Numbered from the stretch's first letter, positions 1 through 23,780 are shown. The stretch is DNA of 32,000 nucleotides from Sulfolobus acidocaldarius DSM 639 (GCF_000012285.1 NC_007181.1:1710001-1742000), one strand, 5' to 3'. The notes: generated by a model from the sequence alone, not told the origin. Translations and numbers: made by a program.

Positions 1-348
1 CTCTTTCCTAGTCTCAGAAAAATATCAGATTTCCAATCAGGTGTTAAAGTAGTTAAGAGAAGTAAAGTGATCAGTGTTGCAGACGAGTTAATTTCTAACG
101 ATCTATTATTTGATGTTAACATAATTTACGCGTTTAAGAGAAGAGGATATACCATAAAGGAAGTTGAAATTCAATACTTAAATGACGAGGATGGCAGCAA
201 AATAGGAAAATCCTTGTCAAAAACTATAGTCCTTATGGCGTTATCACTTCTCAGGCTTAGAATTTTCTATTCTCCCTTCAAAAAATTACTTTACTATCCA
301 TTAATGGTAAGGTTCCAGCGTTGGGTATTTAATAGACTGAACTCCTAG
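1..348 (+). CDS. GT2-family glycosyltransferase, C-terminal part (dolichyl-phosphate-hexose synthase-like); 5' end lies outside the window
   Basis: Frame 1 is open from nt 1 (LFPSLRKISDFQSGVKVVKRS...) to the TAG at 346-348. The D-x-QSG-x-K motif, the FDVNIIYAFKRRGYTIKEVEIQY..DGSKI block and a hydrophobic C-terminal tail match the usual C-terminal layout of Dol-P-sugar-forming GT2 enzymes. Confidence 0.7.
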   Translation, partial: LFPSLRKISDFQSGVKVVKRSKVISVADELISNDLLFDVNIIYAFKRRGYTIKEVEIQYLNDEDGSKIGKSLSKTIVLMALSLLRLRIFYSPFKKLLYYPLMVRFQRWVFNRLNS

Positions 349-350
349 CC

Positions 351-1343
351 TCACTTTCCTTTTCTCCTATAAATGATGTCTAAAGTGAACGCTACTGCAG
401 TTATGGCTATGGCTAAACCGAATATAAGCATAGGCTCTACAGGGTATTCAACTTTGATACCTACACTTCCTTGAGGAGGAGACTCTCCGTATACGTTTAT
501 CACTTTAAAGGTCTTCAGTTTAGGGAAAGTTATGTTTACTGTCATGGACGTGGAATTTACAGTTAAAGTAAATTTACCGTTACCATAATTATCTGTGTAA
601 CCACTATAATATTGATGATTGTTAACGAAAACTACGTATGGCTCATCTGAGAACGGTGCTATCACAGAGAACTCTAAAGGTCTAACGGTGGCGTTATCTA
701 ACCTAAAACCAACATACGTTATATTCCACGGAAAATTGGTCTTAATGCCTACATAATATTCACTACCATTTATAAATACTCTAGATAATTCTGCCTTCCC
801 GTTATCATCAGTCAACACAACTGTATAATTAACAGGCTTATTGATTATCAAAGTATCCCCTATATAGTTTCCTGACGGACCAGGTATAGGTCCTATGAGG
901 TCCCAACTATTATTCATGTTCTGCCATAGGTATCCGTTCAGAGCGACTGTAAGTATTGACGTGTTAGACTTATAGTCAGGTAGTGGCGGAGTAAAGTTTT
1001 GCCCATAAAAAACTATACCTGATATCCTTGAAAGATTACAAATACCCACGAATGAGACTATCATCTCATTTGATATCGAGAAGTTAACAGGGAATAGAAT
1101 ATAGTTAGCCACAAAACCTTGGTAAGTTAATAGGTTACCATTCTTTATTAACTTGACACCTGTAGAGATGTTAGGGAAATTTATTGAGTTTATCTTGGTC
1201 TCTAAGACAGAGAACTTAATTTCTATATTCTGACCCAAATATACACTATTAGGATAACTAAGTTGCACCATAAGAGAATTGGTGTAGGTTGGAATTAACA
1301 TCAAGAGAAGGAAAAGCATCAACAGAATTATCACAGATCTCAT
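351..1343 (-). CDS. Secreted, membrane-anchored hypothetical surface protein rich in N-glycosylation sequons
   Basis: 330-aa ORF. It has a hydrophobic N-terminal signal/anchor (MRSVIILLMLFLLLMLIP) and a C-terminal TM helix followed by a basic tail (LIFGLAIAITAVAFTLDIIYRRKGK). About a dozen N-x-S/T sequons are present (NIS, NFS, NLS, NFT, NTS, NNS, NYT, NGS, NIT, NAT, NST, NIT). A TATA-like box lies upstream. Confidence 0.6.
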   Translation of the reverse strand: MRSVIILLMLFLLLMLIPTYTNSLMVQLSYPNSVYLGQNIEIKFSVLETKINSINFPNISTGVKLIKNGNLLTYQGFVANYILFPVNFSISNEMIVSFVGICNLSRISGIVFYGQNFTPPLPDYKSNTSILTVALNGYLWQNMNNSWDLIGPIPGPSGNYIGDTLIINKPVNYTVVLTDDNGKAELSRVFINGSEYYVGIKTNFPWNITYVGFRLDNATVRPLEFSVIAPFSDEPYVVFVNNHQYYSGYTDNYGNGKFTLTVNSTSMTVNITFPKLKTFKVINVYGESPPQGSVGIKVEYPVEPMLIFGLAIAITAVAFTLDIIYRRKGK

Positions 1344-1360
1344 ACAATACTATTAAGTAT

Positions 1361-1429
1361 TATAATATTTAAGCCAAATGAAAGCGTTTTCAAGTCTCTC
1401 TATCGGAAATGAGGGATTTTAATATAAAG
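1361..1429. promoter_or_regulatory. Divergent promoter region with two TATA-like boxes
   Basis: tataatatttaag (1361-1373) reads CTTAAATATTATA on the minus strand, about 24 nt upstream of the ATG at 1343. ttttaatataaag (1417-1429) lies about 30 nt upstream of the ATG at 1453. Both spacings fit archaeal leaderless or short-leader transcripts. Confidence 0.4.
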
Positions 1430-1452
1430 CAGATAAACATAAGATAAATATA

Positions 1453-2335: not shown

Positions 2336-4666
2336 CTATTTACTTTCACGCAACCTTTCACTAATTAATAGAGATGACAAAATGAGTAACGGTAGGAATG
2401 ACACAAAAAATAGCACTTTTTTAACATTACTGTACTTGAACTCAATAGTTGCTGTGTAATTCCCAGATGGCATTAACCAGGCATTTCCAAATCCGTTAGC
2501 TACGTAGTGATTATTATTAATTTTACCGTTTACCGATAACTCCCACCAATGATTATATCCTGTTGTAAAGACAAGATAAAAGCTCGTGTCACTGTTTACT
2601 TTAACTACTATTTTATCGGGACTTTCAATTTGATACTCTAAATGCACATTACTCACGTTTGAGATATTTAGCTTAGGTCCTCCGTCAATAAATGAGACAT
2701 TAAAAGCCTTGAACTTTCCAGTAGAGAAATTCCAAAAGATTTCATCATAACTCAAATTACCTGTTACTCCACTGCTCGCATAAACTAAGGGTACGTTGCC
2801 TTCAACTTCATAAATCTTATACGGGCCATAACTTCCAACGTATTTCAACCCTTTTGAGGAGTTCAACATAATCTCAAAAGCTGTGAAATTCCATGGATAA
2901 GCCCCTGAAAAATTATAGTATGGTCTAGCGAATGTACCCGGACCTGGATATGCTCCTTTATTTAACACTACATATTTAACACCAAGTACCTTAAGTAAAT
3001 TTACTAGGTCTGTTATGTTGTTTGAAGGTAAATATTTAGCCAATACGAAGACAATGGGTGATTTGCCAGCATCCGAGATCACCTGGCCCATGAAGAAGTA
3101 GGTTTGGGGAGGTGTGTTTGATCCAACCCAGCTTCCATTGTAATATGTGGCTGTTGAGAGTGCTAACTGTATAGGTAAGAACAGTACGTTATTATAGCCA
3201 GCTTTCGACAACACCTCAGAAGATGCAACAAACCACTGAGGATAGTTAAAGGTATTCAGGATCTTCTCGTCTGTATTACCTAACAAAAGGCTGTAATAAC
3301 TAGTAGATGAATGAGTTATTCCTACATATGAAAATATTATAGAATTAATGAGCAAAAATAAATAGAGGAGAGCATTAACTATTCTTCTAGCGGGGAAGGG
3401 ATGTCTTCTTATGAAGTCATAACTTAGTATGAGGAGAATTAGGAGACTCAAGTTTATCATATAACCTACATGCACCGGTTGCACCATGTACGAAAAGCCT
3501 GTAATTAATATACCAAGAATAGGTAACTTGATTATATTCGATTCAATGAGTGGGACTAGACTTATCACGCCACTTTGGAGGAGGAAGAGTAATATCAGAG
3601 TTAAAGTTAAGGACAATCTTAGAGGGAAATACATCTTTGGCTGAGCTCTGAAGATGACACTGAATATTAATGGTACAACAACAGTTACACCGAGTCCAAT
3701 AGCTCCAACTAAGTAATTAAGGAGAGATGGAGTTACAGATATTGCAGGATAATAAAGCAGAAAAGATGTAGAAAGGTTATAGTTTTTATAGGTGTCCAAT
3801 AATTGATATACTACAACGTTTTGACCTGAAAACGTCTGGAGAGAGGAAGAATATGCTCCCGTGCTTGAGAAATAGAGATAAAAGATTAGGTAGGAGCCAG
3901 AAATTAAGAGAATAGTGAAGAAAAGTAAGAACCTAAATAAGACTTTTCTAACGGATAATTGGAATATCTTGATCAAGGGAACTGTTACCACTATCATAAA
4001 TAAAATAAAGTAAGCTGTCATTGTCTGAAACTCATATATCATGCCTCCTAGACCTATTAATGATACAAGTACAAGAAGATTTAATGATTGTTTAATTGAG
4101 TTGACTGTTATCAGTCTGAGATAAGAGTAGATTAGTAAAGGAGTAGTAAAGTAACCATATAGAGGTGGAACAATTTCCCCCATTATCCAATTTATACCAA
4201 TAGTGTAGTAGTCCAGAATGAAGAAGTAGGTGACAAAAATAACAAAGAGATAGTCCAATAGGTCAAGTTCTTGTCTCCTGAAGAACTTGAATGTATAGAG
4301 GATTCCTACATAAGCAACGTTTGCCATTAACTGCACAACTATCCACTGCACTAAACCTATTCCTAGACCTAGTATGTAAAATGGAACGCTTAATACAGCG
4401 AGAGGAAAGTAAGTAACAAATCCGAACTCAGGACCTCCCGGAAAGACTCCGTAGTTCCAAATATTCACGTATCTCTCCAGGAAGTTTAACGGGTTTAGGG
4501 GAAAACCCCCGTCCCAGTAATATATAACATCTCCCCTTGTGTATAACCACCAAAATACGGAAAATATCACGTTAAAAGCTATTAAAGACATGATGGGGAG
4601 TAATCTCGCTTTCTGAGAGAACACAATAGTCGTATGCTTTTTCATTATAAAAAATATGATGAACAC
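2336..4666 (-). CDS. Large polytopic membrane protein, GT-C-fold glycosyltransferase-like (pair A, paralogue of 8771-11044)
   Basis: 776-aa ORF. By eye the N-terminal ~480 aa holds more than 10 hydrophobic helices, with first-loop motif YWDGGFPLNP...WNYGVFPG. A sequon-rich soluble region follows (GVKYVVLNKGAYPGPG, YPWNFTAFE). It ends in GYNHWWELSVNGK..NHYVANGFGNAWLMPSGNYTATIEF plus a final TM helix. That C-terminal signature resembles YfhO/AftD-type GT-C proteins. The exact start (4666 or 4645) is uncertain. Confidence 0.65.
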   Translation of the reverse strand: MFIIFFIMKKHTTIVFSQKARLLPIMSLIAFNVIFSVFWWLYTRGDVIYYWDGGFPLNPLNFLERYVNIWNYGVFPGGPEFGFVTYFPLAVLSVPFYILGLGIGLVQWIVVQLMANVAYVGILYTFKFFRRQELDLLDYLFVIFVTYFFILDYYTIGINWIMGEIVPPLYGYFTTPLLIYSYLRLITVNSIKQSLNLLVLVSLIGLGGMIYEFQTMTAYFILFMIVVTVPLIKIFQLSVRKVLFRFLLFFTILLISGSYLIFYLYFSSTGAYSSSLQTFSGQNVVVYQLLDTYKNYNLSTSFLLYYPAISVTPSLLNYLVGAIGLGVTVVVPLIFSVIFRAQPKMYFPLRLSLTLTLILLFLLQSGVISLVPLIESNIIKLPILGILITGFSYMVQPVHVGYMINLSLLILLILSYDFIRRHPFPARRIVNALLYLFLLINSIIFSYVGITHSSTSYYSLLLGNTDEKILNTFNYPQWFVASSEVLSKAGYNNVLFLPIQLALSTATYYNGSWVGSNTPPQTYFFMGQVISDAGKSPIVFVLAKYLPSNNITDLVNLLKVLGVKYVVLNKGAYPGPGTFARPYYNFSGAYPWNFTAFEIMLNSSKGLKYVGSYGPYKIYEVEGNVPLVYASSGVTGNLSYDEIFWNFSTGKFKAFNVSFIDGGPKLNISNVSNVHLEYQIESPDKIVVKVNSDTSFYLVFTTGYNHWWELSVNGKINNNHYVANGFGNAWLMPSGNYTATIEFKYSNVKKVLFFVSFLPLLILSSLLISERLRESK

Positions 4667-4740: not shown

Positions 4741-5088
4741 TTAAACTCCTTGCAGGTTTTGAAGTAAAAACTTTAAGAGTAAAGAGGAGAGATGGAAATC
4801 AATTTCTAAGAATTTTGAAACATTAGCCTCCCACACGAAATTCTTCCTTATCTTCACATTAATTATTATCTTGAACATCTTACTCGCCAAACTAACATGA
4901 TCATCTCTACAACATTTCTGAAAATCACTACTTAGCATGTTATAATATCTTCTCACGTGCTTACTGTCCAAGAGAAAATAATAACCCCACTTGCTAAAGT
5001 ACTTTACCTTTCTCACATACCTTACACTACTCATATATCTTGACATAGTCAAAAACCTTCCAATTGCTTTTAGGAACTTTTTTATCAT
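4741..5088 (-). CDS. Hypothetical basic protein (only weak, unverified sulfotransferase-like motifs)
   Basis: 115-aa ORF with no TM segment. Its ATG overlaps (ATGA) the stop of a 31-39 aa upstream ORF (5085-5204). YYFLLDSKHVRRYYNML and IRKNFVWEAN loosely recall sulfotransferase 3'-PB and RKG..GdW regions, but the spacing is compressed. Confidence 0.35.
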   Translation of the reverse strand: MIKKFLKAIGRFLTMSRYMSSVRYVRKVKYFSKWGYYFLLDSKHVRRYYNMLSSDFQKCCRDDHVSLASKMFKIIINVKIRKNFVWEANVSKFLEIDFHLSSLLLKFLLQNLQGV

Positions 5089-5285: not shown

Positions 5286-6353
5286 ATGCATTATGTGGAG
5301 ATTAGTTTAATTACGACATACCTTAAGAAGTTTGACGGTCAAAGTAGGGCAACAATAAACTTTGCTAAAGGTTTGAGTAAGCATGGAGTAAAAGTAAAGA
5401 TTGTGTCTCTTGGGCTAGAGGATGGTATTAAAGAGGAGCTTAAAAACAATGACATAGAGGTAATTAGTCTAGATCAGCCTAGAAGCGTTTATTATGATAT
5501 ATCTCTACTCTTTGGTTCTCCAAGCCCATTTAAGAAAATTGCCAATTATGTAAACGACTCTATTAGCATAGTTACCAATGATGAGGCGGTACCGGTGGTA
5601 AATAGTATCAAAGGACGTATTATATACTGGAGTCAGGGAGCATTAATGAGCGTGTTCCTATGGAAGCCATTTTACGCAAAAAAGGGTACTCTAAAGAGAT
5701 TAGTTAGTCTTTTCTTAGTTAGAAACTCCCACAGGTTCTCAGACTTTGTATCGAAGTATCATATGTTATTGGCTAATAGTAATACAAGCGCTTTAGTTGT
5801 TTCCCTTTTCTACAACAGGGTCCCACAGGGAGTTGTATACCCACCCATAGATATTGATAGTTTTAAATATTCTTCTGAAAAAGAAAAGTTTGCATTAGTG
5901 ATTTTAAAGAGATCATACCCTACTCATATAGACTTGCTGAGAAAGATTGCCAATTCTGGGATAAAGTTGAAAGTGATTGGGTATAAAATCGACGGGGCAG
6001 AATATTTAGGGGACAGAGTAGATGAAGAGAGGTTAAGAGATTTGTACTCGTCTGCATTAGTTACATTATACCCTGTTGATTTTGAGTACTTCGGATATAT
6101 TCCAGTAGAGTCCATGGCGTCAGGAACTCCAGTTATTGCTTTTAAGTATTCAGGTGGTCCTTCGGAATCCATAATACATGATGAAACAGGATGGTTAGTC
6201 TCTAACGAAAAAGAGTTTTATGAGGTTACTTTAAAAGTTTATGAGAGAGGTTACGAAGAAGCCTTACCACAAAAATGTAGAAATAGAGCCGAATATTTTT
6301 CTCTATTGACGCAGTCTAAGAGACTTTTAAGTTATATACATCAATCAGAGTAA
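5286..6353 (+). CDS. GT4-family (GT-B) glycosyltransferase
   Basis: 355-aa ORF. The C-terminal block FEYFGYIPVESMASGTPVIAFKYSGGPSESIIHDETGWLV is the canonical GT4 E-x7-E nucleotide-sugar-binding motif. Confidence 0.8.
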   Translation: MHYVEISLITTYLKKFDGQSRATINFAKGLSKHGVKVKIVSLGLEDGIKEELKNNDIEVISLDQPRSVYYDISLLFGSPSPFKKIANYVNDSISIVTNDEAVPVVNSIKGRIIYWSQGALMSVFLWKPFYAKKGTLKRLVSLFLVRNSHRFSDFVSKYHMLLANSNTSALVVSLFYNRVPQGVVYPPIDIDSFKYSSEKEKFALVILKRSYPTHIDLLRKIANSGIKLKVIGYKIDGAEYLGDRVDEERLRDLYSSALVTLYPVDFEYFGYIPVESMASGTPVIAFKYSGGPSESIIHDETGWLVSNEKEFYEVTLKVYERGYEEALPQKCRNRAEYFSLLTQSKRLLSYIHQSE

Positions 6354-6445: not shown

Positions 6446-7402
6446 TTAACTAAACATCGAATTACTCCTTAACATCCTAAGGTAGATCTTCCTGGCTAAC
6501 TTGTTTGATGCTGAATTAATTACAGAAAGTAGAAACATAAACCAGTCCCACTTAATCCACTGAAGATCCTTAGCAATTCTCCAAACGTAACTTAATCCAC
6601 TTTTCTCGCCTGACATAATCTTATATAACAACTCTCTATACACTTTCATCTTTTGAATGTTCTCCATAATTATTTTGTCAGTGAACACCTTTTCGAATAA
6701 CTCAGCATCCTCTAATTGCATCTTGAATACCTCAAGGTTAACTGTATCTTTACTTTGCTGAACTCTCCTGTAAAAAGTTAGGGTGTTTTTATCAATAGCT
6801 ATATTTCTCCTTTTCTCCCAAGCATAAAAGAAAAGGAAAGTGTCAGCCGTTAACTTCACTTTTCCTAGAAGATCAGATGACTCCACAGCAAAATTTCTGT
6901 CGAGAACTATAGAACTTACATTAAATCCTGCCTTATGTTTATGATAAAGAGTGTTAAGTAATGACCTTGAATTATTAGATGGCTTAAAAACGTCTACTTC
7001 ATTCTTTACCTCAATCTTGTTGGGGATCTGGTCGGAGAAAGTTAATGCTGCATTATGATAAAAATCTATTCTACTTATGCTGGCTCTATTGCCAAATGTA
7101 TTTAGGACCCTTGGAATCTTGTCAGGGTGAAATAAGTCATCGTCTTCTACAAAGAATATAATATTACCACTACTCCTACTGATGCCATCCTTTAACTTAC
7201 CACCCAATGTCGTATCCTTCGAATAAATGTTAATCACAGGCAGGGAATCAAGATAAGAATCTATCCTCTCGTCAAGGAAGTTTTTAACAACTATAATCTC
7301 GGAGTCATAATTCTTGGTGTAAATTAGGAGGGAGTCAATTAAACTAGTTAGGAACTGTTTCCTATTATATGAGGTTATAATGACACTGAAGTCTTTGGGC
7401 AT
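6446..7402 (-). CDS. GT2-family glycosyltransferase
   Basis: 318-aa ORF. FSVIITSYNRKQFLTSLIDSLL is the GT2 N-terminal motif and IIFFVEDDDLFHPDKI is the DxD region. It is the last gene of a tightly spaced minus-strand trio (gaps of 25 and 14 bp). It is an intact paralogue of the broken gene at 27837-28892. Confidence 0.8.
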   Translation of the reverse strand: MPKDFSVIITSYNRKQFLTSLIDSLLIYTKNYDSEIIVVKNFLDERIDSYLDSLPVINIYSKDTTLGGKLKDGISRSSGNIIFFVEDDDLFHPDKIPRVLNTFGNRASISRIDFYHNAALTFSDQIPNKIEVKNEVDVFKPSNNSRSLLNTLYHKHKAGFNVSSIVLDRNFAVESSDLLGKVKLTADTFLFFYAWEKRRNIAIDKNTLTFYRRVQQSKDTVNLEVFKMQLEDAELFEKVFTDKIIMENIQKMKVYRELLYKIMSGEKSGLSYVWRIAKDLQWIKWDWFMFLLSVINSASNKLARKIYLRMLRSNSMFS

Positions 7403-7416
7403 ATCTTCCCTTCTCC

Positions 7417-8745
7417 TTATACTTTCATTAAATCCTCATATAGCCTTTCGCTTACATTCCTCCATCCTGTATGATCCCTTATGAAACTCTCTACCTTGTC
7501 GTTGTAGACAATCTTCCTGTAGTCCTCCCATCCAGCCTTGAAAAGATTTGCCACCTCTTTTGACATGGCATCTATATCGTACTCCCTTACGAACTTAACT
7601 GCAGGAAGACCATTGAATACACTCTTTGGTCCAGGAATATCATAACTAACTACAGGTGTGCCAACAGTTATGGACTCAAGAATACTGAGGGAGAACGTGT
7701 CCTCATGAGAAGGATAAACTACACATTTAGCCTTACTTACCACATCATAAAGCTCATTACCAGTCAGATAACCTTTGTATACTATGTGGTCTGACAAGCC
7801 CATTTCCTCCACAAGGTTAAAGAAGTAATCCTGAAAACTCTCATTCTTCTTTCCTCTAATGTCCTCGGGAAATTTCCCTACGATAAAGAGTTTAGCCTCT
7901 TTCACTATCTCCTTGACTTTAGAGAGGATAAAGGGTAGTTCCAAAGTACCTTTTAAAGGTAAAAGTCTTGCAAAAAACACCATATAGTCATCCTTATCAG
8001 TCCTCTTCTCCCTAAACGAGAGTAGCTCTCCTTCTATGGCTGCTGCAGGATAAAGTACTTTACCCTTTCCTGAATTAAGGACTCCGAGAGAGTTTAGTTG
8101 CCCTGGAGACATACCATAAATCCTTACCACATTTGGGGAGTTCTTCAATTTCCTCACTATAAACTTCTCCCTAAATCCCTTATACAAAGTGTAGACTATC
8201 TTATTCTTATGATTAATAAATACGTCAATTGGAAAACCCCTTAATCTGTTCTTTAAATAACGTAATACATTTAGGGGTACTCCAAAAAAGTAGTCATGCG
8301 ATGCAATACCTTGAAGAAGTACCGAACTTCTAAGATCTGCTTTGTAAGATATATACATGACTTCACCATATTTAAGCGAAGGCTCCATTAAAAGCTCTGA
8401 AAACTTAAACATCCTGTAAAACCTATATGACGGACCGTAGTTTATATCTAGTAGGATTGTCCTATTACCCTTTAATTTCTCCACAAACTTCCTCAGCCTC
8501 TCAACTGGGTCCAGGTCTTCCTCTAGGTATTCAAAGCCTATGATCTTGTCCGATATTTTGCTCAAGGACGAATATGAATTATTCCCATCGAGGAAGGAGT
8601 TCAACTTAGGTAAAATGAAAACGTTGTCTTTATCCAGAAGATGTTTCACCAAATTATATTCAACCTTCTCCCCACCACCTTCAAAAGAGTTGTTCTTCAA
8701 TATCCTTAGGCTCGTCAGAATAGCTATCGGTTTTTCCATTATCAA
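7417..8745 (-). CDS. GT4-family (GT-B) glycosyltransferase
   Basis: 442-aa ORF. PSHEDTFSLSILESITVGTPVVSYDIPGPKSVF is the GT4 E-x7-E motif. Confidence 0.8.
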   Translation of the reverse strand: MIMEKPIAILTSLRILKNNSFEGGGEKVEYNLVKHLLDKDNVFILPKLNSFLDGNNSYSSLSKISDKIIGFEYLEEDLDPVERLRKFVEKLKGNRTILLDINYGPSYRFYRMFKFSELLMEPSLKYGEVMYISYKADLRSSVLLQGIASHDYFFGVPLNVLRYLKNRLRGFPIDVFINHKNKIVYTLYKGFREKFIVRKLKNSPNVVRIYGMSPGQLNSLGVLNSGKGKVLYPAAAIEGELLSFREKRTDKDDYMVFFARLLPLKGTLELPFILSKVKEIVKEAKLFIVGKFPEDIRGKKNESFQDYFFNLVEEMGLSDHIVYKGYLTGNELYDVVSKAKCVVYPSHEDTFSLSILESITVGTPVVSYDIPGPKSVFNGLPAVKFVREYDIDAMSKEVANLFKAGWEDYRKIVYNDKVESFIRDHTGWRNVSERLYEDLMKV

Positions 8746-15043: not shown

Positions 15044-17485
15044 TTACTTAAATTGAAAGTTATAAAGGAACAATTGATAATTATTTTCAAAATACTTTAA
15101 AGTATATGTATCATTTGAATAAGTTACTAATACTCCATAAAAGTATATATGAGCAGGCAGGTTAAAGTTGAATCCTCTAAACTCTATAAAACTCGTCGTT
15201 GAATTTAAAGTAATATTTACCTTTACTAGAAACAGATTATCATTAATTCTTAAGAGATCATTGGCAGTAATGCCCTTAGATACAATTATCTTACTAACCT
15301 TCTCAATAGGTATATCTATGTTCAATATTGTAGTGTTTTTATATAGACTAAGATCTGCGGTGTTATCTATGCCGATTATATAATACACAGTATAGTTGCC
15401 CTTAGGTAAGGTCACATAAGGACCGTACCATATAAATTCTGAAGTCTCATCACTGACTATATAAGGTGCTAAAAATGGGCTGTAAACTTTCTGACCGTGA
15501 TAAACATCAAACATGCTGGCAGGATAGAAATAGAAAGAGTAAGGACTTATCTCAGTTATGTTAACACCTCCGAAATATATAGTTATATTTGGATAGTAAG
15601 ATAAACCTCTAAACTCTAGTTGTTCAAAGTAGTCTTTTATCGTGAATATTATATTAAACACCATCCACTTCCCTTGAACAACATCATTTGAAGATATGAT
15701 ACTATAATTCAATGTACCTGAGGACGTACTTACAACCTCAACTCTCATAAGGTTTGTAATATAAAGTGGGACGTTTTCTAATTTGACGTAGAACTGAGCT
15801 ACGTAAGTACCTGTAGGTAGGTTGTAATAGGGACCATACCAGAGAGGTGTATTTAATGGATAAGTGCCATTTTTATATACGTAAACTGTGCCAATTTGAG
15901 GATCATTTACTTCAAAATAAGTCGGTGATCCTACATAGAAGTTTAATGCAGAGAAATACTTTGAAAACGGTTTAAAGTAGACTATGGGACCAGTGTAATT
16001 TGCCTTAAGTAAGAGTAGACCGTTTGCCTCTGCCAACATACTGTAATTTCCTCGGATGTAACTTAGAAACAATTCAGGTTCACTGAGGAAAATATAGTCT
16101 GGAAATCTTGGTGAATATTTTAATTGGCTAGATGTTATTAAACTACCATATAACGGGTAGGAATTAAGGTTATTTGCCACAAATGGAAATAAATTATTAC
16201 TAGCTAACACAACAGCATTTTCAGGTATTAATGAAGTCATATTAGATATGACCTCGTAATTTGAATTAGCTAAACTTAAATTGAAGGGTGGAACATACCC
16301 TCCACCGTAATATCTTGGGGAATTCATAGCTTGTAAGTTGTTATATGTAAAAGGATTTAGTAGAAATGAAATAAAGAGAACTATAACTAGAGCTACCTTA
16401 ATTACTCCTGGTCTTTTCAACAATGTATTTAATGAATGTAGTGAGGCTGTTGCCATCGGTCCTAATGCGATAAACACGTATTGGTAACCTATTCCTGAAT
16501 ACGTCAACATTATTGAAAATAAAGATGTGCCAATATATGGTAGAGCTGGCAGTAACTCTATGGGGGAGAACAACGGAAGGAAACCGAAGGAAGCGAAATA
16601 CATAAGCCAAAAACTCGACTTAAAGCTCCACGCATAATTTATTCCTTTTAGAAATAAATAAGTTATAGTAGAGTATAGATAATGGGTAGTAGAGGAATGA
16701 GAAGAGGTTGCGAAAATAGAGTTAAGATAATGAGGTATAGTTAGCCCCATTATTATTGATATAATAATAAAAATTAAAAATAATGTAGTATTTTTAAGAA
16801 AAAATTTAATTTTTGTTCCTTTTTTATAACTTTTTATTATCAAGTAAATCATAAATAGGATAACTATTGGGTACGCCGCTTCCATGGATAATAGTAAAAA
16901 GATAATGAATGTGGAAAACCTTCTCCAAGCTTTAATAAGGTAATAATAATATGCACCTAAATAAAATAAAGGAAAAAACACTTCTGCGTGGAAATCATAT
17001 AGGTAACCAGATATAGAAAGAGGATTAAATAAATACAGGATAGTAAATATTAGTGGTAATGTTCTAAATCCATTTTCCTTAAATAATGTAGAGCCTATCT
17101 TATATACATATATCGATGATAATGATATAATAAGAGATTGAGTTAATGAAAGCGTTAGCCAAGATGGGAAAAAATAGTATATCGGTAATAAGAAGAACAT
17201 TATGAAATATGGGTGGATACCCAATCCACTTATTACTCCATAATATGTAAAATTAGGCGAATCATAAAATATTCTTCCATGCAGAGTAGAATAAAGCTCC
17301 TGTAAGAAAATACCTAGGTCAAAAGCACCAGAGTAAAGATCATATAACCTTATATAAAACATCAAATTCACAAGAATGTTGAAAATGACATTCATAATAA
17401 TCAAGACAACATAGTCTCGTTTTAAGTATCGGGATAAGGAAAGTATTGTATTATAATTAACATAGAATGCATAACGTCTAGCCAT
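15044..17485 (-). CDS. DUF2079-like polytopic membrane protein (GT-C-like) with duplicated C-terminal soluble module (pair B)
   Basis: 813-aa ORF. It has the canonical first-loop motif GAFDLGIFLQELYSTLHGRIFYDS. It shares FPSWLTLSL, FSP(I/L)ELLPALPYI, S(S/N)D(I/V)VQGKWM and EFRGFNFN with 12488-14938. Its two C-terminal modules are marked by PLWYGPYYNLPTGTYVAQFY and FIWYGPYVTLPKGNYTVYYI. Confidence 0.7.
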   Translation of the reverse strand: MARRYAFYVNYNTILSLSRYLKRDYVVLIIMNVIFNILVNLMFYIRLYDLYSGAFDLGIFLQELYSTLHGRIFYDSPNFTYYGVISGLGIHPYFIMFFLLPIYYFFPSWLTLSLTQSLIISLSSIYVYKIGSTLFKENGFRTLPLIFTILYLFNPLSISGYLYDFHAEVFFPLFYLGAYYYYLIKAWRRFSTFIIFLLLSMEAAYPIVILFMIYLIIKSYKKGTKIKFFLKNTTLFLIFIIISIIMGLTIPHYLNSIFATSSHSSTTHYLYSTITYLFLKGINYAWSFKSSFWLMYFASFGFLPLFSPIELLPALPYIGTSLFSIMLTYSGIGYQYVFIALGPMATASLHSLNTLLKRPGVIKVALVIVLFISFLLNPFTYNNLQAMNSPRYYGGGYVPPFNLSLANSNYEVISNMTSLIPENAVVLASNNLFPFVANNLNSYPLYGSLITSSQLKYSPRFPDYIFLSEPELFLSYIRGNYSMLAEANGLLLLKANYTGPIVYFKPFSKYFSALNFYVGSPTYFEVNDPQIGTVYVYKNGTYPLNTPLWYGPYYNLPTGTYVAQFYVKLENVPLYITNLMRVEVVSTSSGTLNYSIISSNDVVQGKWMVFNIIFTIKDYFEQLEFRGLSYYPNITIYFGGVNITEISPYSFYFYPASMFDVYHGQKVYSPFLAPYIVSDETSEFIWYGPYVTLPKGNYTVYYIIGIDNTADLSLYKNTTILNIDIPIEKVSKIIVSKGITANDLLRINDNLFLVKVNITLNSTTSFIEFRGFNFNLPAHIYFYGVLVTYSNDTYTLKYFENNYQLFLYNFQFK

Positions 17486-17863
17486 GACAGATATAGTTAT
17501 AAGGTCAAGTTTATATTTTTAACTTAAACCATTTAATGTATTTTGTAGAGTACGTCTTTTTATTTATTTTAGCCCAATTATTATGTTAAATTTTTTAATA
17601 ATAAAATAAATAGATGAAATTATTTAATAATGATAAAAATCTGTTCTTTTATGTTAGTGTTTGCTGTTATCATAAAAATGACATGAAACGTACAGCTCAA
17701 AATTTTTCATGATCGATGTAAAAAATATTACCAACTAGGGAAACCCTAGAATTCGTATTTTACTTATAAAAAGAAATAAAATTCTGCTCATTCCTCTAAG
17801 TTTTTTAGGTAAAAGGTTTATAGCTAGTGAAACTTTTTCCTTTCTTTATAATTTTTAAAGATT

Positions 17864-17894
17864 TTATAATTATAAAAATAGTTATAATTATAAA
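17864..17894. repeat. AT-only direct repeat of TTATAATTATAAA (two copies, 18-bp period), built from tandem TTATAA palindromes
   Basis: ttataattataaa occurs at 17864-17876 and again at 17882-17894. A third partial copy (tttataatt) lies near 17845. All sit inside a long A/T block. Confidence 0.6.
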
Positions 17895-18079
17895 TTCCTT
17901 TGAAATTAAATAGATAAAAGAAATTAATATTAATACCAACCTTTAAGTTCATGGTTATAGAGTGGTAATATTCCTTGATTTACACTAAAATGTAGGTAAG
18001 TAAGCTTGTTGTTATAATATTTATGATTTGGGAATTGATGCACTAAATATCCTTAGAGTTTGGGAATAAGATACAAGGA

Positions 18080-18800
18080 CAGACTTACAGCCTTAACACT
18101 CGCAACAGCATCTATAATCAGCAAAATAGTCCGAGATAAAACCACTATATATCAAAGCTATTCATGGAAAAAGGATGTTGGTTGAGAAAAGTCATCTGAA
18201 GGTTATGAAAATAGCCATTCCAAAGTTACTTTCCGTGAACTTGCCTAGAACATTAAAGTATAAGATAATGGATGGCGACCAACAAATGGTTAGATAAAAT
18301 TAGAGGAACAAGAAGAAGAGGGGTATTATGAACAAGGGAAAAGTTAATTTAGTGTAAACCAGATTACTCATTTCGGCGTCCGTGGATAACTTTTAGACAA
18401 TCTCTCTTATAATCAAGTAATTATACATTATATATAATGTGTGAAAACTTCAGCTTAATTGAATTTACGCGATGATACTAAAAAATTCAGGCGTAATCAG
18501 GTTGACAAAGAACAAGAAGAATATAGGTTAAAAGTATATTCAAAACTAAGGTAGAGAGAAAATTCATTCCAGGACTTAATGGGTTCACAAGTTCGGTTAT
18601 TTGATATGGAGATAAATCTCTTTTAAAGAACTGTTAGTGTTTCATTGATTTTTGAGGAAATGGTTCATTTCCTATTTATGGGTACAGTGCAGTTATATGG
18701 GTAAAAATCGTAGCAAAACATTTCCTTGTAATTTAATTTATGTTATCATGAACGTGTTAATTGTCCAGCTAACATACTCTGTGTATCACCCTTCTGATGC
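18080..18800 (+). pseudogene. Decayed IS200/IS605-family tnpB (orfB)-like remnant
   Basis: Peptides in shifting frames appear in the order expected for TnpB. These are LTALTLATASIISKIVRDKTTIYQSY (N-terminal helix), MKIAIPKLLSVNLPRTLKYKI (the l.iPklg...l..pr. strand), CENFSLIEF (E-x-L RuvC-II-like), KTKVERKFIPGLNGFTSS (compare YKa..Gi.v..vNP.yTS) and C-SYMG-KNRSKTF-PC (degenerate Zn finger). Many stops and frameshifts interrupt them. No tnpA is visible. Confidence 0.35.
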
Positions 18801-19693
18801 AAAAAGGACCAACAAACTTTGCGTACATAATTACATGATGTGTATGGGCAATCATTTTGTTATTTTAATATAAAATTAATTTTTCTTCTGTTTATGATCT
18901 AAAATAGGTGTTTTCAGGGTGAGATTTAGAACTAGTTATGAGGTGAGGAAAGTAAACAGATTAGAACTGCTTTACCTCATTCAAATAATACCTATTCTTC
19001 TAATGTATATAGGTAAAAAGGTTTCAACGCTTTGGATTAAATCTCAGAGGCTTGCCTTTTACTTGATAGTCTAGTTGGGAGACTATATTGGCACACATAA
19101 CATTACTCTACTACCTCCATAAGTTTGCTAACTAATTATGGGCTTTATCTTGACATCAAGCGAGAGATTACTTACTTATTAACAAGATTAAGGTCTTGTT
19201 GGTGATTTAGGTATTATTATGTACGTGTTATTAGACACTGTGAGATTGGACTAATTACATTCTTTATGTCTAAGGAGTAGTTTTAATAGCTATGTAATGT
19301 TGAACGGTATTAAACTTATGGACTGGAGGAAGAAAAATGATCCCCGTATATGGCAAGGCACTAGCATACAACGCATTTAACTGGTTTGATACAAAACACT
19401 ATGTTAACATTTTTAATAAGAGGAGTTTACTGAGTTAGTGTTCAAGGAGTTTAATATATAGATTTCCAAATATTGATCATTGCTTTACATACAAGGAGGA
19501 TGATAGCTATACGACTAAAGGTATCTATCTCAGTGTATAACTCGATTTACTCAAGTGTTATTAGCATAACAAATATAAAATTGAATTTTATATATGTGAA
19601 TGAAATTTTTGTTCATACTATATAAATAATTAATGAGAATATATCAACGATTTTGTGAGTGGTGACTCCTGATCCCTATTTTATCAGCTTACT

Positions 19694-20845
19694 CTATATA
19701 TCAACTTCAATCTGTTTCAAGACATCAATCCAACGTTCTATCACGTTATCCCAATCATTTGCCTTAGCAGTCTTTATCCCATTCTCAACCAGTCTTAATG
19801 CTAAGCGAGGGTTACTTAACACTTCGAGAACTAGACTCAGTAACTCTTTTTCGTCATGATGTTTACTTACAAGCGCGTTTTCTCTATTTATTACATACGC
19901 CCTCATGCCTATGTTGTCTGTGGTTACAACAGGTGTACCGCACGACATTGCCTCAACAGTGGTTAACGAATAACTTTCTAGTCTAGAAGTTATTAAAAAC
20001 ACAGAAGCTTCATTATATAATTTGACCATCTCCTCATATGTTGGATGTGAATAGCTGATATATTTGAACTTGATTTTGTCTTTTAAAGTATTTAACACAC
20101 CGTGATCCACAATTATTGCAGAGAAGTTAATCTTTTCAGCCAAAGAGTTCAAAGTACGTATAGCTAACTCTGAGTTCTTGATTTTCTCGCTTCTGAGAAT
20201 AGTCATGATAACGTTTTTCTCGCGTTTATCGTAACTTTTTAGAACTCTAAATAACTTACTATCCACACCTACTCCAGTCACAAAGACTCTAGTACTACTT
20301 CTGAGCAAGGGTTTTGCTAACTTAGCATCTATGTTTGATAATGCAAAGTAGTAATCATGAGGTAGGAAATAAGAAAGATACCACCTAGGGTCACTTGAAT
20401 ACAGAACTGACATTGGCACTAATAGCTGAGGGAAAAAAGCTAAGCGTTTTACTTTTCCTTGCCATTTAGCTAAGAAACCCCATAAAGCTGTTTTAAACTC
20501 ATTTACTATTAGTAAGTCTGACTGAGGTATTATCTCCATAACCCTTTTAGCAAAGTCGAAATCAATCCCTAAAAGGTGAGATAGAGCATAGTAATAGTCA
20601 AATCCTGCAAATTCCTTAATCATTTTGTATTTAAAGCTGAGAGGTGAAAGTAAGTACTTTAACACCTTTGGCTCTTTAGGGTATATTATGGGGACTTTGT
20701 TGTGATCATAATACCACACCTTAGCTCCTGTAGTGACTATCTTTACGTCAAATCCTCTCCTTAAGAGTCTATTAGCTATTTCGAGTATGGAGTAGTTACC
20801 TCCAGTTAAAGGTAAGCGTCCAATAAGGAATGTTATACTAAGCAT
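19694..20845 (-). CDS. GT4-family (GT-B) glycosyltransferase
   Basis: 383-aa ORF. SRLESYSLTTVEAMSCGTPVVTTDNIGMRAYV is the E-x7-E motif. The N-terminus LSITFLIGRLPLTGGNYSILEIANRLLRRGFDVKIV is typical of GT-B N-domains. Confidence 0.8.
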   Translation of the reverse strand: MLSITFLIGRLPLTGGNYSILEIANRLLRRGFDVKIVTTGAKVWYYDHNKVPIIYPKEPKVLKYLLSPLSFKYKMIKEFAGFDYYYALSHLLGIDFDFAKRVMEIIPQSDLLIVNEFKTALWGFLAKWQGKVKRLAFFPQLLVPMSVLYSSDPRWYLSYFLPHDYYFALSNIDAKLAKPLLRSSTRVFVTGVGVDSKLFRVLKSYDKREKNVIMTILRSEKIKNSELAIRTLNSLAEKINFSAIIVDHGVLNTLKDKIKFKYISYSHPTYEEMVKLYNEASVFLITSRLESYSLTTVEAMSCGTPVVTTDNIGMRAYVINRENALVSKHHDEKELLSLVLEVLSNPRLALRLVENGIKTAKANDWDNVIERWIDVLKQIEVDI

Positions 20846-21074
20846 GGTTATACTTATAACTAATTTGTACTATATTAACATTTAAAATCTCTCGTCTTTA
20901 GGAAGCTAATGAACGTTAGGAGATCAATTATGGTTCATTTACGAATTAACCTGGTATTATTACTGAGGCACATAACTTAACCTGAGTTTACCACATCAAC
21001 TCCAGAGTAATCACGGATTTACTAAGTCTATATCTATATCGCAAGAGTTATCAAACATAGTAAGTAATGATCTT

Positions 21075-22388
21075 ATGAGTAGAAAAACTAATAAGAACAT
21101 AACAACCTACAGTCTTGTAAGAGATATGTTAAAGAAAGTACTTGTAGTGACAGATCCTCTTTCACCTGGAGGCGCATCAAAACATGCTAGAGAGGTTCTT
21201 AAAATATTACCGAAACTAGGTCTGGAAGTAAAACTATATATACCCTTTATTCACGCAATCCCACAATCTCCTGAAGAAAAAGAAAGGAAGTATTTAAACT
21301 TAAAAGAGCTAGAACGCAATGGAGTAGAGGTATTCCCAGAGGTTTGGAAATACTTGGAGATGGAAAAAGAAAAAGAAAATATATTCCCTTATCTGTTAAC
21401 GCTTACTTCTGGTTATATTCCAAAGAAAGATATGGAGTTTTCAAATGATTTACGTGAAAATTTTTCTTTAGTATATGATATGAGCGAAAATGAGTACCAC
21501 TTTAAGGTTTCACACATGATTGCAAAGAAACTTCATGTACCTTTAGTAATATTATTACAGAGTGAATCTTACGCGAATTCGTTCGGGAGAGGGTACCGTA
21601 AAGTATTAGGAATTAAAGGACTGTTTTATGATCTTGGGATTACGTATATATTCATGTTTAATAGAAGGAGGTTTGTAAATGCATTAAGAGAAGGTGTACT
21701 AAGAGGTATCCTTTCAGTATCTAGAGCAATCATTAAGCAATCTAAACTTGAAAGGCTAGCCCAAGATTATAAAGTATATACAAACGTATTAAAACCTGCT
21801 AATGCAATAGACGGAACTTCAATTAGTCACTTTAGAAGTAAAAAAGTAAAGGAAAACTTTGCTTTGTATGCAGGGAGAATAACATATCTTAAAGGTATTA
21901 TAGACTTAATTAAGATAGCAAAAGAGACAAACGTAAAAATCATGTTAGCAGGATCCTTTGATAATCATAAGGAAATGGAAAGACTTTTCAGTAAATTCCC
22001 GCCCAACTTAGTATATTTAGGCTCTTTCATGAACAATGAATTATACAAGATAATTTCCAATTCAAAAGTCACTTTATTACCTTCTTATAAGGAAAGTTTT
22101 TCACTGATAACCATGGAATCGTTAGCCTTAGACACACCTGTTATAGCTTATAATTTACCAGCTATCAACGAAATTTACGGTGATATTAAAGCAGTTATAA
22201 AAATCCCTGTAGGGAACTATAAGTTAATGGCTAAAACGCTAGAATCTTTAATGGAAAAGGACATTCGAGAGTTATTTGACCCTAAAGTAGAAGAACTCAT
22301 AAAATTTTATTCGTCATGGGAAAAGGTAGCTGAAGCTACATTACACGAACTGGAGAATGTAAAAAAACTGGCTTCAACTCCCTCTTAA
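21075..22388 (+). CDS. GT4-family (GT-B) glycosyltransferase
   Basis: 437-aa ORF. PSYKESFSLITMESLALDTPVIAYNLPAINEIY is the E-x7-E motif. The in-frame ATG at 21126 (MLKKVLVVTDPLSPGG) looks like a more typical GT4 N-terminus, so the true start may be there. Confidence 0.75.
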   Translation: MSRKTNKNITTYSLVRDMLKKVLVVTDPLSPGGASKHAREVLKILPKLGLEVKLYIPFIHAIPQSPEEKERKYLNLKELERNGVEVFPEVWKYLEMEKEKENIFPYLLTLTSGYIPKKDMEFSNDLRENFSLVYDMSENEYHFKVSHMIAKKLHVPLVILLQSESYANSFGRGYRKVLGIKGLFYDLGITYIFMFNRRRFVNALREGVLRGILSVSRAIIKQSKLERLAQDYKVYTNVLKPANAIDGTSISHFRSKKVKENFALYAGRITYLKGIIDLIKIAKETNVKIMLAGSFDNHKEMERLFSKFPPNLVYLGSFMNNELYKIISNSKVTLLPSYKESFSLITMESLALDTPVIAYNLPAINEIYGDIKAVIKIPVGNYKLMAKTLESLMEKDIRELFDPKVEELIKFYSSWEKVAEATLHELENVKKLASTPS

Positions 22389-22670
22389 AACATATATGTA
22401 ATGTTTTAAGGAGGACGTCCTTATCATATAGTCATAAAGTGTAATTATGTTAATGTAGTTAGTGCCTTTACAGGAGCAATTATCTGCAGTGAAAAATTAA
22501 TTCCACAATTGGAATAATATTCCTCAAGAGATAAGTATATGATTTATCAATTTTTAATGGTTTAGAAAGTTCCTTCCTGCTCTGAATTACTAATGAAAGG
22601 AAAATTATAAGTCATAATTCCCGCCTAATCTTAAATAATCTGTAAAGGATCTTCTTATAGGTATCCCCTT

Positions 22671-23780
22671 ATGAGTAAGAGAGGAATAATTTTTATAGAG
22701 GAGTTCACTAGGCTTGGTGGAGGACAAATTGCATTCATAAATATTTATAACGCTATTATGCAAAGGTTTGATTACCTCTTACTCTATACAGATAAGTTTC
22801 ACCCAAAACTGCCCAAACTACGGTTCGATAGAGTATTTGAAGGAAAATACACGTACTCTGAAAACGACCCTCTTATCGTTTTCCCTATAAGAATGTTCAG
22901 AGAAAGAAGGCTATTGAAGAAGTTCATAGAAAAAGAGAAGAGGAACGTTAATAATAGTAGAACATTATTCGTATTTAATAATCACCCTAATGTGTTTGTG
23001 TATAACGGCACCTTAAACCTCGTCCATGAGAACTTCTTAACTCCCTTCACTGATGAAAATGGCAATATAAGGAACTGGATAGGCGTCAAATTACTGAAGC
23101 TGTCAGGCATATACAAGGAATACGAGAAGGCGAATTTGATAGTGACAGGAAACTATGCAAGAAAAATGGTCTCACGTTCACTTGATATCTTAGGAGTAAC
23201 TCCAAACTCTATACATGTTATTAACTTACCGGTTAAGATGCCTGAGAACGTAGAGCTTGATAATAGGGAAGAATGTGTTTTAATTTTCGGTAGGATAAAT
23301 AGGGAGAAAAAACTAGATGTAGTGATAGAAATTGCTAAGAGAAGTAGATACAGATTCATTGTTGCAGGCGCAGTTAACAAAGGTGATGAGAGTTATTTCA
23401 ACTCCTTAAGGGCTAAATCACCTGATAACGTCAACATTATACCTAATCCTAATGAAGAAAATAAAGATATTCTCTTTAGAAAATGTAGCGTGTTCCTTCA
23501 AACAAAGAGGTATGAGCATTATGGACTTTCGGTAGCGGAGGCTATATCATATGGACTAATACCTGTTGTACCTAAGGTGGGTGGACCCTGGGAGGACATA
23601 ACAGAGTATGGTAAGTATGGCTTTGGCTATGAGGACATTGAAGAGGCTATTTCTGCTATCGGCCAAGTTATGAAAGTTAATCCAGTTTTTAGAAAAGAGG
23701 TCTTTGAATCAAGATACAGGTTCAGCTTTGATAGATTTCATGCTAAACTCAATGAGTTGTTAGATAAGTTTTTAATGTGA
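22671..23780 (+). CDS. GT4-family (GT-B) glycosyltransferase
   Basis: 369-aa ORF. TKRYEHYGLSVAEAISYGLIPVVPKVGGPWEDI is the E-x7-E motif. The N-terminus is IIFIEEFTRLGGGQIAFINIYNAI. Confidence 0.75.
   Translation: MSKRGIIFIEEFTRLGGGQIAFINIYNAIMQRFDYLLLYTDKFHPKLPKLRFDRVFEGKYTYSENDPLIVFPIRMFRERRLLKKFIEKEKRNVNNSRTLFVFNNHPNVFVYNGTLNLVHENFLTPFTDENGNIRNWIGVKLLKLSGIYKEYEKANLIVTGNYARKMVSRSLDILGVTPNSIHVINLPVKMPENVELDNREECVLIFGRINREKKLDVVIEIAKRSRYRFIVAGAVNKGDESYFNSLRAKSPDNVNIIPNPNEENKDILFRKCSVFLQTKRYEHYGLSVAEAISYGLIPVVPKVGGPWEDITEYGKYGFGYEDIEEAISAIGQVMKVNPVFRKEVFESRYRFSFDRFHAKLNELLDKFLM

Follow-up and report, generated by a model that had tools for sequence, protein, structure and literature searches.

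The 32,000-bp stretch of the Sulfolobus acidocaldarius DSM 639 chromosome analysed here (GCF_000012285.1, NC_007181.1:1710001-1742000; hereafter the window, with positions counted from its first base) lies in the middle of saci_1904-1927, a gene cluster already known as a putative surface-polysaccharide locus and uncharacterised. This cluster was proposed as the locus for exopolysaccharide (EPS) synthesis and secretion, controlled by the biofilm regulator AbfR1 (PMC9549778; PMC5961385). An initial annotation, made from the sequence alone, had described a glycan locus organised around four giant membrane proteins that resemble glycosyltransferases (GTs) of the GT-C type. Our analysis supports this description: all four giants, named here A1, A2, B1 and B2, are predicted to be GT-C-type, outward-facing glycosyltransferases, and a gene for a flippase of the MOP/Wzx type was found in the same cluster, a few kilobases to the left of the window.

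Primer anchors and gene order showed that the window runs from the 3' end of saci_1909 through saci_1923 and onwards. Cloning primers for S. acidocaldarius glycosyltransferases, taken from PMC11627041 (Table S2), matched the window exactly at positions 320-345 (Saci_1909, reverse), 1456-1472 (Saci_1911, forward), 7384-7399 (Saci_1915, forward), 8724-8742 (Saci_1916, forward), and 19697-19718 (Saci_1921, reverse). As the gene counts between these anchors fit perfectly, the numbers saci_1910, 1912, 1913, 1914, 1917, 1918, 1919, and 1920 could be assigned as well. The left flank (10 kb, locus L004) was read from the S. acidocaldarius record CP046615.1, which carries the gene for the exoprotein, in which the gene order is identical to that of the window and where the Saci_1904 forward primer also found an exact match. 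In addition, B1 is 100% identical to an S. acidocaldarius protein annotated at NCBI as DUF2079. All the open reading frames (ORFs) of the initial annotation were recovered at the same positions by ORF listing and searches of Pfam and NCBIfam (Table 1), and its tight minus-strand unit from 11044 to 6446, with gaps of 25 and 14 bp, proved correct. The Pfam scan covered the window ORFs of at least 100 aa, with hits reported at E <= 0.1.

Table 1. Features of the analysed region. Positions refer to the window, except for the left-flank genes, which were read from locus L004; "by order" marks gene numbers assigned from gene order.
Feature	Position	Strand	Family and remarks
Saci_1904, GT4	L004, leftmost of the flank genes listed		
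Saci_1905, 461 aa, MOP/Wzx-type	6.9-8.3 kb left of base 1		Polysacc_synt_3 34.6 bits (cutoff 23); Polysacc_synt 26.8 bits
Saci_1906, 642 aa	L004 15672-17600, ~4.3-6.3 kb left		polytopic N-terminus, external sequon-bearing domain, C-terminal anchor; no family match
Saci_1907, GT4	L004, between Saci_1908 and Saci_1906		
Saci_1908, 508 aa	L004 11828-13354, ~0.5-2.0 kb left of window		hydrophobic throughout; no family match
saci_1909, 3' end	1..348	+	full protein a 244-aa GT2; candidate dolichyl-phosphate sugar synthase
saci_1910 (by order), exoprotein, 330 aa	351..1343	-	signal/anchor at N-terminus, anchor at C-terminus, sequon-rich
saci_1911, GT2, 261 aa	1453..2238	+	Pfam GT2 29.3 bits (cutoff 23.3)
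saci_1912 (by order), giant A1, predicted AftD-like GT-C	2336..4666	-	polytopic N-terminus, predicted extracytoplasmic beta-rich domain, C-terminal transmembrane anchor
saci_1913 (by order), 115-aa basic protein	4741..5088	-	upstream of A1, same strand; called as gene in genome record
saci_1914 (by order), GT4	5286..6353	+	Pfam Glycos_transf_1 52.4 bits
saci_1915, GT2	6446..7402	-	last gene of A2 operon; Pfam GT2 52.8 bits
saci_1916, GT4	7417..8745	-	25 bp downstream of A2; Pfam Glycos_transf_1 77.2 bits
saci_1917 (by order), giant A2, predicted AftD-like GT-C	8771..11044	-	heads operon A2-GT4-GT2
saci_1918 (by order), FkbM-family S-adenosylmethionine methyltransferase	11168..11947	+	Pfam Methyltransf_21 40.8 bits; TIGR01444 68.5 bits (cutoff 37.7)
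saci_1919 (by order), giant B1, DUF2079, predicted GT-C fold	12488..14938	+	PF09852 427.2 bits, E 1.3e-127, model 2-459 of 459
saci_1920 (by order), giant B2, DUF2079, predicted GT-C	15044..17485	-	PF09852 440.3 bits, E 1.3e-131, model 1-459 of 459
AT-rich gene-free stretch, 2.2 kb, ~28.6% GC	17486..19693	.	between B2 start and saci_1921 end; includes B2 upstream region
saci_1921, GT4	19694..20845	-	Pfam Glycos_transf_1 75.5 bits
saci_1922 (by order), GT4	21075..22388	+	Pfam Glycos_transf_1 67.6 bits
saci_1923 (by order), GT4	22671..23780	+	Pfam Glycos_transf_1 65.0 bits
Right end of cluster, apparently decayed	23964..28892	.	tblastn with S. tokodaii and L006 proteins; Pfam
FkbM methyltransferase fragments	24075-24459	+	tblastn match in two pieces
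Sulfatase remnant	24997-25674	-	residues 1-175 of intact homologue match 25527-24997, E 8e-24
PAPS-reductase-like ORF	25733-26368	-	among the decayed genes
GT2 split in two ORFs	27837-28394 and 28494-28892	-	continuous match to intact GT2 proteins, 28874-28086, across ORF break

The giants, with sizes from 757 to 816 aa, form two paralogue pairs. A1 (probably with its GenBank start at 4645, giving 769 aa) and A2 are 27% identical (E 2e-54), while B1 and B2, encoded by convergent genes placed tail to tail, reach 41% identity (E 8e-180). No similarity between pair A and pair B was detected by BLASTP; profile-profile comparison of both families with hhalign gave 79.8% probability (E 1.4e-5) over 179 core transmembrane columns. 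Hydropathy plots showed multiple transmembrane segments over residues ~20-450 of the A giants, followed by a non-hydrophobic C-terminal region and a single C-terminal transmembrane segment, and over residues ~20-380 of the B giants, followed by non-hydrophobic C-terminal regions.

For pair A, a word-indexed search returned only 8 relatives, all of ~48% identity, among which the one from Sulfurisphaera tokodaii (S. tokodaii) is tagged by UniRef as "YfhO family". An exhaustive profile search returned 726 relatives, many of them full length. Five relatives scored above the threshold of the AftD model PF11847, GT-C_AftD (P0045, P0092, P0053, P0083, and P0063, with 53.6, 51.4, 35.5, 34.9, and 27.7 bits, respectively), and another one above that of DUF6541 (35.7 bits). 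A 31-sequence profile built from this search (A3) matched the AftD arabinosyltransferase of Mycobacterium abscessus (PDB 6W98/6WBX) with E 3e-12, and the aligned region (profile 36-485, chain 41-469) takes in the membrane GT-C domain in full. The homology of pair A to AftD is thus real at the level of sequence profiles but transitive, and A1 and A2 are best described from it as putative AftD-like GT-C enzymes, not as AftD orthologues. D38 of A2 is the sole invariant acidic residue among 9 close relatives, within a YWxDxxFP motif directly after the first transmembrane segment; A1 carries this family-invariant Asp in the motif YYWDGGFPLNP. In the alignment of hidden Markov models, D38 falls within 2 residues of D41 of AftD, a residue that is essential in this enzyme, as is K39 (bioRxiv 10.1101/2019.12.22.885152).

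At the C-terminus of the A giants, ~100 residues make up a beta-rich module, recognisable by H..ANGYANAW..P.G.Y, after which comes the transmembrane anchor. By themselves, these ~100 residues gave matches, with E values from 1e-9 to 1e-16, to large proteins that number in the hundreds and differ in other respects; from eight of these proteins that were scanned, three reached PF11847, one DUF6541, two remained just below PF11847, and two had no Pfam match. The pattern suggests a C-terminal module, so far unnamed, that is widespread in this GT-C clade.

Concerning pair B, both proteins are clear members of Pfam DUF2079 (PF09852, gathering cutoff 28.2). An AlphaFold (AF2) model of B2 from a 12-sequence alignment had a mean predicted local distance difference test (pLDDT) score of 75.3, mostly above 84 in the membrane domain, with helices up to approximately residue 375 and beta domains beyond. 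When this model was compared with the PDB by Foldseek, all the matches spanning the membrane domain at E <= 1e-3 were GT-C enzymes. The best one was the mannosyltransferase ALG12 (9s6t; E 7.8e-6, target-normalised TM-score 0.51), ArnT (5ezm and 5f15) gave target-normalised TM-scores of 0.42-0.44, and a likeness to STT3 from several oligosaccharyltransferase complexes and to AglB (3wak) was detected too. This likeness to STT3 is at the fold level only, as none of the four giants matched the STT3 model PF02516 at E <= 0.1. The C-terminal 400 aa of the B2 model matched carbohydrate-binding modules (CBMs) of families CBM4-2, CBM6, CBM22, and CBM51, with target-normalised TM-scores of 0.6-0.72, and also the CBM-like domains of Vip3 and Cry toxins; the C-terminal domains of B1 and B2 are therefore predicted from the model to be CBM-like. 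These tandem domains, of ~320 aa, are missing from most of the aligned DUF2079 relatives.

A shallow alignment of 12 DUF2079 sequences revealed conserved residues that, in B2 numbering, correspond to D56 (in DLGIF, right after the first transmembrane segment), Q62, H91, D164-F-H166, and E202, all of them kept in B2. Of the aligned sequences, 10 extend over the position of D56 and 9 of these keep the Asp, the exception being B1, in which N53, within an N-L-S sequon, takes the place of the family Asp and G-F-Q (~159-161) that of D/E-F-H, whereas the Q, H88, and E197 are kept. A third S. acidocaldarius paralogue (P0010) keeps both motifs changed in B1. Having lost two conserved motif residues, among them the Asp and the His, B1 may be catalytically impaired, and could act as a non-catalytic partner of B2. 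A second tail-to-tail DUF2079 pair, made up of this third paralogue (644 aa) and a 289-aa fragment, was observed elsewhere in the genome, at L008 3024-5895 (CP046615.1, close to the record's end), mirroring the arrangement of B1 and B2 but with no glycosyltransferase genes beside it.

The distribution of N-glycosylation sequons was consistent with an outward orientation. Enrichment was detected only in the anchored exoprotein Saci_1910 and the four giants, for which at most 7 of 500 residue shuffles reached the observed count, and was absent from the seven soluble glycosyltransferases and the methyltransferase encoded fully within the window. The exoprotein, with hydrophobic segments at residues 1-26 and 300-326 and no known domain in Pfam or NCBIfam, carries 12 N-X-S/T sequons, a number reached by a single one of its 500 shuffles. 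The giants bear 8-14 sequons in their C-terminal soluble regions versus 2-4 in the membrane domains (11 of 13 in the C-terminal 321 aa of A1; 14 of 16 in the C-terminal 438 aa of B1). Because the sequons are concentrated there, the C-terminal domains of the giants are probably extracytoplasmic.

The second claim of the initial annotation, that no flippase, polymerase, exporter, or STT3-type oligosaccharyltransferase is encoded, stood within the window, where no ORF of the size scanned matched the MOP/Wzx, Wzy, ABC, or STT3 Pfam models at E <= 0.1. It failed for the flippase when extended to the locus, and with it the notion of a route that replaces Wzx/Wzy, given that the cluster also encodes the MOP/Wzx-type protein Saci_1905, just beyond the left edge. 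The apparent absence is an artefact of the window edge, which cuts saci_1904-1927. Saci_1905 is also the sole flippase candidate, since no GtrA-like ORF was found, and genes with Polysacc_synt domains lie as well near the S. tokodaii locus and near a DUF2079 gene in the metagenome contig L009. A polymerase could be sought in the two polytopic proteins encoded between Saci_1905 and the window, Saci_1906 and Saci_1908, of which Saci_1908, hydrophobic throughout, is a candidate. Comparison of both with the A and B profiles (hhalign) and with the PDB (phmmer) was negative or very weak. Saci_1906 shares the layout of the A giants, although the corresponding hhalign link was weak (37.6% probability, the best value obtained). 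As an archaeon with a single membrane would need no exporter of the outer-membrane type, the lack of such a gene is uninformative.

On the cytoplasmic side, nine Leloir glycosyltransferases were counted in the window, including the edge gene saci_1909 (four GT2 and five GT4), and two further GT4 in the left flank, giving eleven in total. Saci_1918 is probably involved in sugar O-methylation, as judged from its family, and no credible Pfam match was found for the 115-aa ORF at 4741..5088. The edge fragment 1-348 alone had no Pfam match; the full-length Saci_1909, recovered from L004, scored 74.6 bits with Pfam GT2. Its best PDB match was the dolichyl-phosphate (Dol-P) mannose synthase of Pyrococcus furiosus (5MLZ, E 1.2e-6), with GtrB among the matches, and its best NCBIfam model was PpgS, the mycobacterial polyprenyl-phosphate GalNAc synthase (E 1.6e-11, nearly end to end, below cutoff), AglJ and a haloarchaeal Dol-P hexose transferase model appearing further down the list. 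The proposal that this left-edge GT2 is a Dol-P-hexose synthase thus found support at the family level: Saci_1909 most resembles a polyprenyl-phosphate sugar synthase, a reading that is the best available for the family and unproven for the protein.

The association of the giants with glycosyltransferase genes across the Sulfolobales, which the initial annotation had offered as a check, held for A2 and not for the other three. This synteny is based on five contig look-ups; two scans of the genome collection returned no confirmed locus. In S. tokodaii, an A-type giant is followed, 6 bp on, by the orthologue of the GT4 Saci_1916 (49% identical), and is surrounded by orthologues of Saci_1911, 1914, 1915, and 1918. 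An A-type giant and the same four orthologues, and not that of Saci_1916, were found in the uncultured Sulfolobales contig L006; A1 and the B pair are in neither locus. Identities in both loci ranged from 42 to 62% (Saci_1911, 62%; Saci_1914, 53-54%; Saci_1915, 42-45%; Saci_1918, 46-51%). A2 and its glycosyltransferase and methyltransferase partners therefore form a conserved module. For DUF2079, a gene in a Thermoplasmataceae genome lies beside GT4, epimerase, GT2, and GT2 genes, and another one, in contig L009, shares an operon with a GT2 gene, which it overlaps, and with genes for an EamA transporter, an epimerase, and a Polysacc_synt flippase.

Taking these data together, the model that we favour, with a probability of about 0.6, is one in which cytoplasmic GT2/GT4 assembly on dolichol and flipping would be followed by extracytoplasmic elaboration, by the GT-C enzymes, of a surface or secreted polysaccharide. 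According to it, the eleven Leloir glycosyltransferases and the FkbM methyltransferase would assemble an oligosaccharide on dolichol at the cytoplasmic face and modify it, Saci_1905 would flip a lipid-linked intermediate (the oligosaccharide, a Dol-P-monosaccharide donor, or both), and the small GT2 Saci_1909 would make the Dol-P-sugar donors. On the outer face, A1, A2, B1, and B2 would transfer sugars from lipid-phosphate donors to elongate, branch, or decorate the glycan, with their C-terminal beta-sandwich or CBM-like domains holding the glycan acceptor, and B1, two motif residues of which are lost, would possibly be a non-catalytic partner of B2. The data show the gene identities, the homology and fold of the GT-C type, the CBM-like domains, a sequon pattern of the outward type, a flippase gene in the cluster, and the synteny of A2 with glycosyltransferase and methyltransferase genes; in this scheme, we infer the donor type, the acceptor, the order of the steps, the product (EPS or another glycoconjugate), and the status of B1.

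Several observations weigh against this model. For the giants themselves, no functional study was found in the literature searched for the tags saci_1912, 1917, 1919, and 1920, DUF2079, or PF09852. A1 and A2 had no match in Pfam (E <= 0.1), in NCBIfam, or in the PDB by phmmer or with a 9-sequence profile; AftD residues E251, K361, and D474 did not map to conserved residues of family A, which has no conserved acidic residue at E251; and the AlphaFold model of A2, from a 9-sequence alignment, had low confidence (pLDDT 49), with AftD entries as its top three Foldseek matches, followed by STT3, a weak corroboration. With respect to gene context, the B pair is absent from the syntenic loci of S. 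tokodaii and L006, and neither the third S. acidocaldarius DUF2079 gene nor a DUF2079 gene of actinobacterial type has glycosyltransferase neighbours. As regards the pathway, no Pfam or NCBIfam match to Wzy or to a priming phosphoglycosyltransferase was found in the window or the 10-kb left flank, all the NCBIfam scores of Saci_1909 are far below the curated equivalog cutoffs, and the link between the cluster and the measured EPS is a literature proposal only.

Some of these points could also be invoked for the giants being no glycosyltransferases at all, but transporters or structural membrane proteins that simply lie near glycosyltransferase genes: pair A lacks a direct Pfam or NCBIfam match, some DUF2079 genes lack glycosyltransferase neighbours, and B1 lacks conserved motif residues. 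We regard this as very improbable, since the family-A profile matches the AftD GT-C domain and the Foldseek matches of B2 to membrane proteins at E <= 1e-3 were GT-C enzymes only, the two results on which a transporter role was rejected. The acidic residue conserved right after the first transmembrane segment, as in GT-C enzymes, the presence of CBM-like domains, and the operon linkage to glycosyltransferase genes kept in three Sulfolobales lineages argue against it too. Quite different is the possibility that glycan synthesis takes place essentially outside the membrane and needs no Wzx-type flippase, with paired GT-C enzymes using Dol-P-monosaccharides as donors, in a manner like the extension of mycobacterial arabinan or lipomannan. 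The four GT-C enzymes, the candidate Dol-P-sugar synthase, and the lack of Wzx, Wzy, or ABC matches inside the window would fit such a route, and in bacterial three-component systems the MOP/MATE flippase carries a monosaccharide donor and not a repeat unit (PMC11127046), so that Saci_1905 could serve the GT-C enzymes instead of a Wzy route. However, the cluster contains the MOP-family gene saci_1905, 6.9-8.3 kb from the left edge of the window, Polysacc_synt genes accompany the S. tokodaii and L009 loci, the polytopic Saci_1906 and Saci_1908 could provide a polymerase, and eleven cytoplasmic Leloir glycosyltransferases between window and left flank argue for substantial assembly in the cytoplasm, all of which makes a flippase-free route unlikely.

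A little less probable still is that the giants act as en-bloc transferases in the manner of Wzy, WaaL, or AglB, using oligosaccharides linked to dolichyl diphosphate to polymerise repeat units, or attaching the finished glycan to a membrane lipid or a protein, the sequon-rich Saci_1910 for example. The additional resemblance of the B2 model to STT3 and AglB, the lack of a separate recognisable Wzy or ligase in the cluster, the anchored exoprotein encoded in it, and the narrow size range of the polysaccharide (44-92 kDa; PMC9549778), suggestive of controlled polymerisation, speak for this option. Nevertheless, no giant has an STT3 Pfam match at E <= 0.1, the nearest sequence relative of pair A, AftD, transfers a monosaccharide from decaprenyl-phosphate-arabinose, the best structural match of B2, ALG12, is a Dol-P-Man mannosyltransferase, and a GT2 resembling Dol-P-sugar synthases is encoded in the cluster.

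Deletion of saci1907 or saci1921 leaves the N-glycan of the surface layer (S-layer) unchanged (PMC8993221), and a role of the cluster in N-glycosylation is hence unlikely. The dispensability of both genes favours a separate product, for instance the polysaccharide of 44-92 kDa, rich in mannose, glucose, and ribose, described in S. acidocaldarius (PMC9549778). The EPS of this organism contains ~26 mol% of RNase-resistant ribose (PMC9549778), and among characterised proteins the one nearest to pair A is a pentofuranosyl (arabinofuranosyl) transferase, from which a speculative link can be drawn. A bolder version of the model would have the EPS finished outside the cell by the four GT-C enzymes. 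A1 and A2 would then be Dol-P pentofuranose (ribofuranose) transferases, accounting for the ribose, and B2 would be the catalytic subunit of a heteromer of the kind known from EmbA-EmbB or Pmt1-Pmt2, with B1 as its degenerate, N-glycosylated pseudo-enzyme subunit. We consider this version a long shot, and the window showed neither a polyprenyl-phosphoribose synthase nor an epimerase.

The locus shares features with several characterised systems, and the favoured model follows the same logic as mycobacterial arabinan and lipomannan synthesis and bacterial three-component glycosylation systems. Pair A is homologous to the membrane GT-C domain of mycobacterial AftD (PF11847), shares with it an Asp after the first transmembrane segment, near D41, and a beta-rich domain that follows on the predicted extracytoplasmic side, and the use of several GT-C enzymes on one polymer with lipid-phosphate sugar donors would recall the Emb/Aft arabinan system. 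However, AftD has ~1400 aa as compared to 757-776 aa in A1 and A2, which end in a single transmembrane anchor and lack its three CBMs and its C-terminal helical transmembrane bundle, which binds the acyl carrier protein. Beyond the Asp near D41, the AftD residues K39, E251, K361, and D474 are untraceable in A1 and A2, and, unlike mycobacterial AftD, these proteins belong to an archaeon with dolichol carriers.

The three-component systems (GtrA/GtrB/Gtr*, CsbB/GtcA/YfhO, and PPPRS/MATE/GT136) resemble the locus in the combination of a small GT2, here the candidate polyprenyl-phosphate sugar synthase Saci_1909, a MOP-superfamily flippase, here the candidate Saci_1905, and GT-C enzymes (PMC11127046; PMC8035078). 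They include documented cases of CBM-bearing GT-C enzymes and of MOP/MATE flippases (PMC11127046), and pair B shares the CBM-like domains on the GT-C. In contrast, such systems have a single GT-C gene, whereas here there are four, among eleven Leloir glycosyltransferase genes and without a small flippase of the GtrA/GtcA type. An archaeal precedent is provided by AglD/AglR/AglS of Haloferax volcanii, where mannose is loaded onto Dol-P by a GT2, translocated with the help of a Wzx-like protein, and passed to a glycan outside the cell by a membrane enzyme (PMC3871713). That route completes the N-linked S-layer pentasaccharide, whereas two glycosyltransferase deletions in the cluster studied here spare the N-glycan. 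Finally, multiple GT2/GT4 genes, a MOP/Wzx-type flippase gene (saci_1905), and modifying enzymes are shared with bacterial Wzx/Wzy clusters for EPS or O-antigen. From these the locus differs in the absence of a recognisable Wzy, chain-length regulator, priming phosphoglycosyltransferase, or outer-membrane exporter, and four GT-C enzymes are unusual for such clusters.

To the right of saci_1923, the end of the cluster looks decayed, with interrupted or truncated genes (Table 1). Within the cluster, the gap between B2 and saci_1921 is unusually long for the gene-dense genome of Sulfolobus. Its longest ORF has 73 aa, stop codons occur throughout the six frames (70 in frame +1 alone), and no Rfam family, tRNA, or notable repeat was found. 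It could correspond to a long 5' untranslated region or promoter region, to a non-coding RNA, or to fully decayed genes.

Two further elements were observed beyond the cluster. The region 29123-29975 includes a 174-aa ORF with an internal, near-exact duplication of ~38 residues (two copies of DSNVLVVVRSKDDETVREIARTALEVNAKYKCSINFHV), which overlaps the start of a HEPN-domain ORF (29622-29975, 38 bits); the two, which have no relation to the glycan locus, may form a toxin-antitoxin-like pair. A 416-aa AAA_14/DUF4143 ATPase is encoded on the minus strand close to the window's right end (30627-31877), outside the glycan cluster.

In conclusion, the locus was already known as a candidate EPS cluster, but its membrane proteins were unassigned in the literature searched. 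As of 2018, no archaeal EPS pathway had been characterised (PMC5961385), and no later characterisation of the membrane proteins of this cluster was found in that literature. A gene that seems to be missing where a window ends does not in itself speak for a new export route. The cluster saci_1904-1927 is the only candidate EPS cluster in the main crenarchaeal genetic model organism. The assignment of its four largest membrane proteins to GT-C provides targets for deletion and for point mutation, D38 in Saci_1917 and D56 in Saci_1920, and a testable assembly logic, from the putative Dol-P-sugar synthase Saci_1909, through the candidate flippase Saci_1905, to the GT-C enzymes. DUF2079 would gain in this way its first functional context, and, if the EPS were indeed finished by GT-C enzymes with B1 and B2 as a heteromer, the family would obtain its first function and the archaea their first defined EPS pathway.

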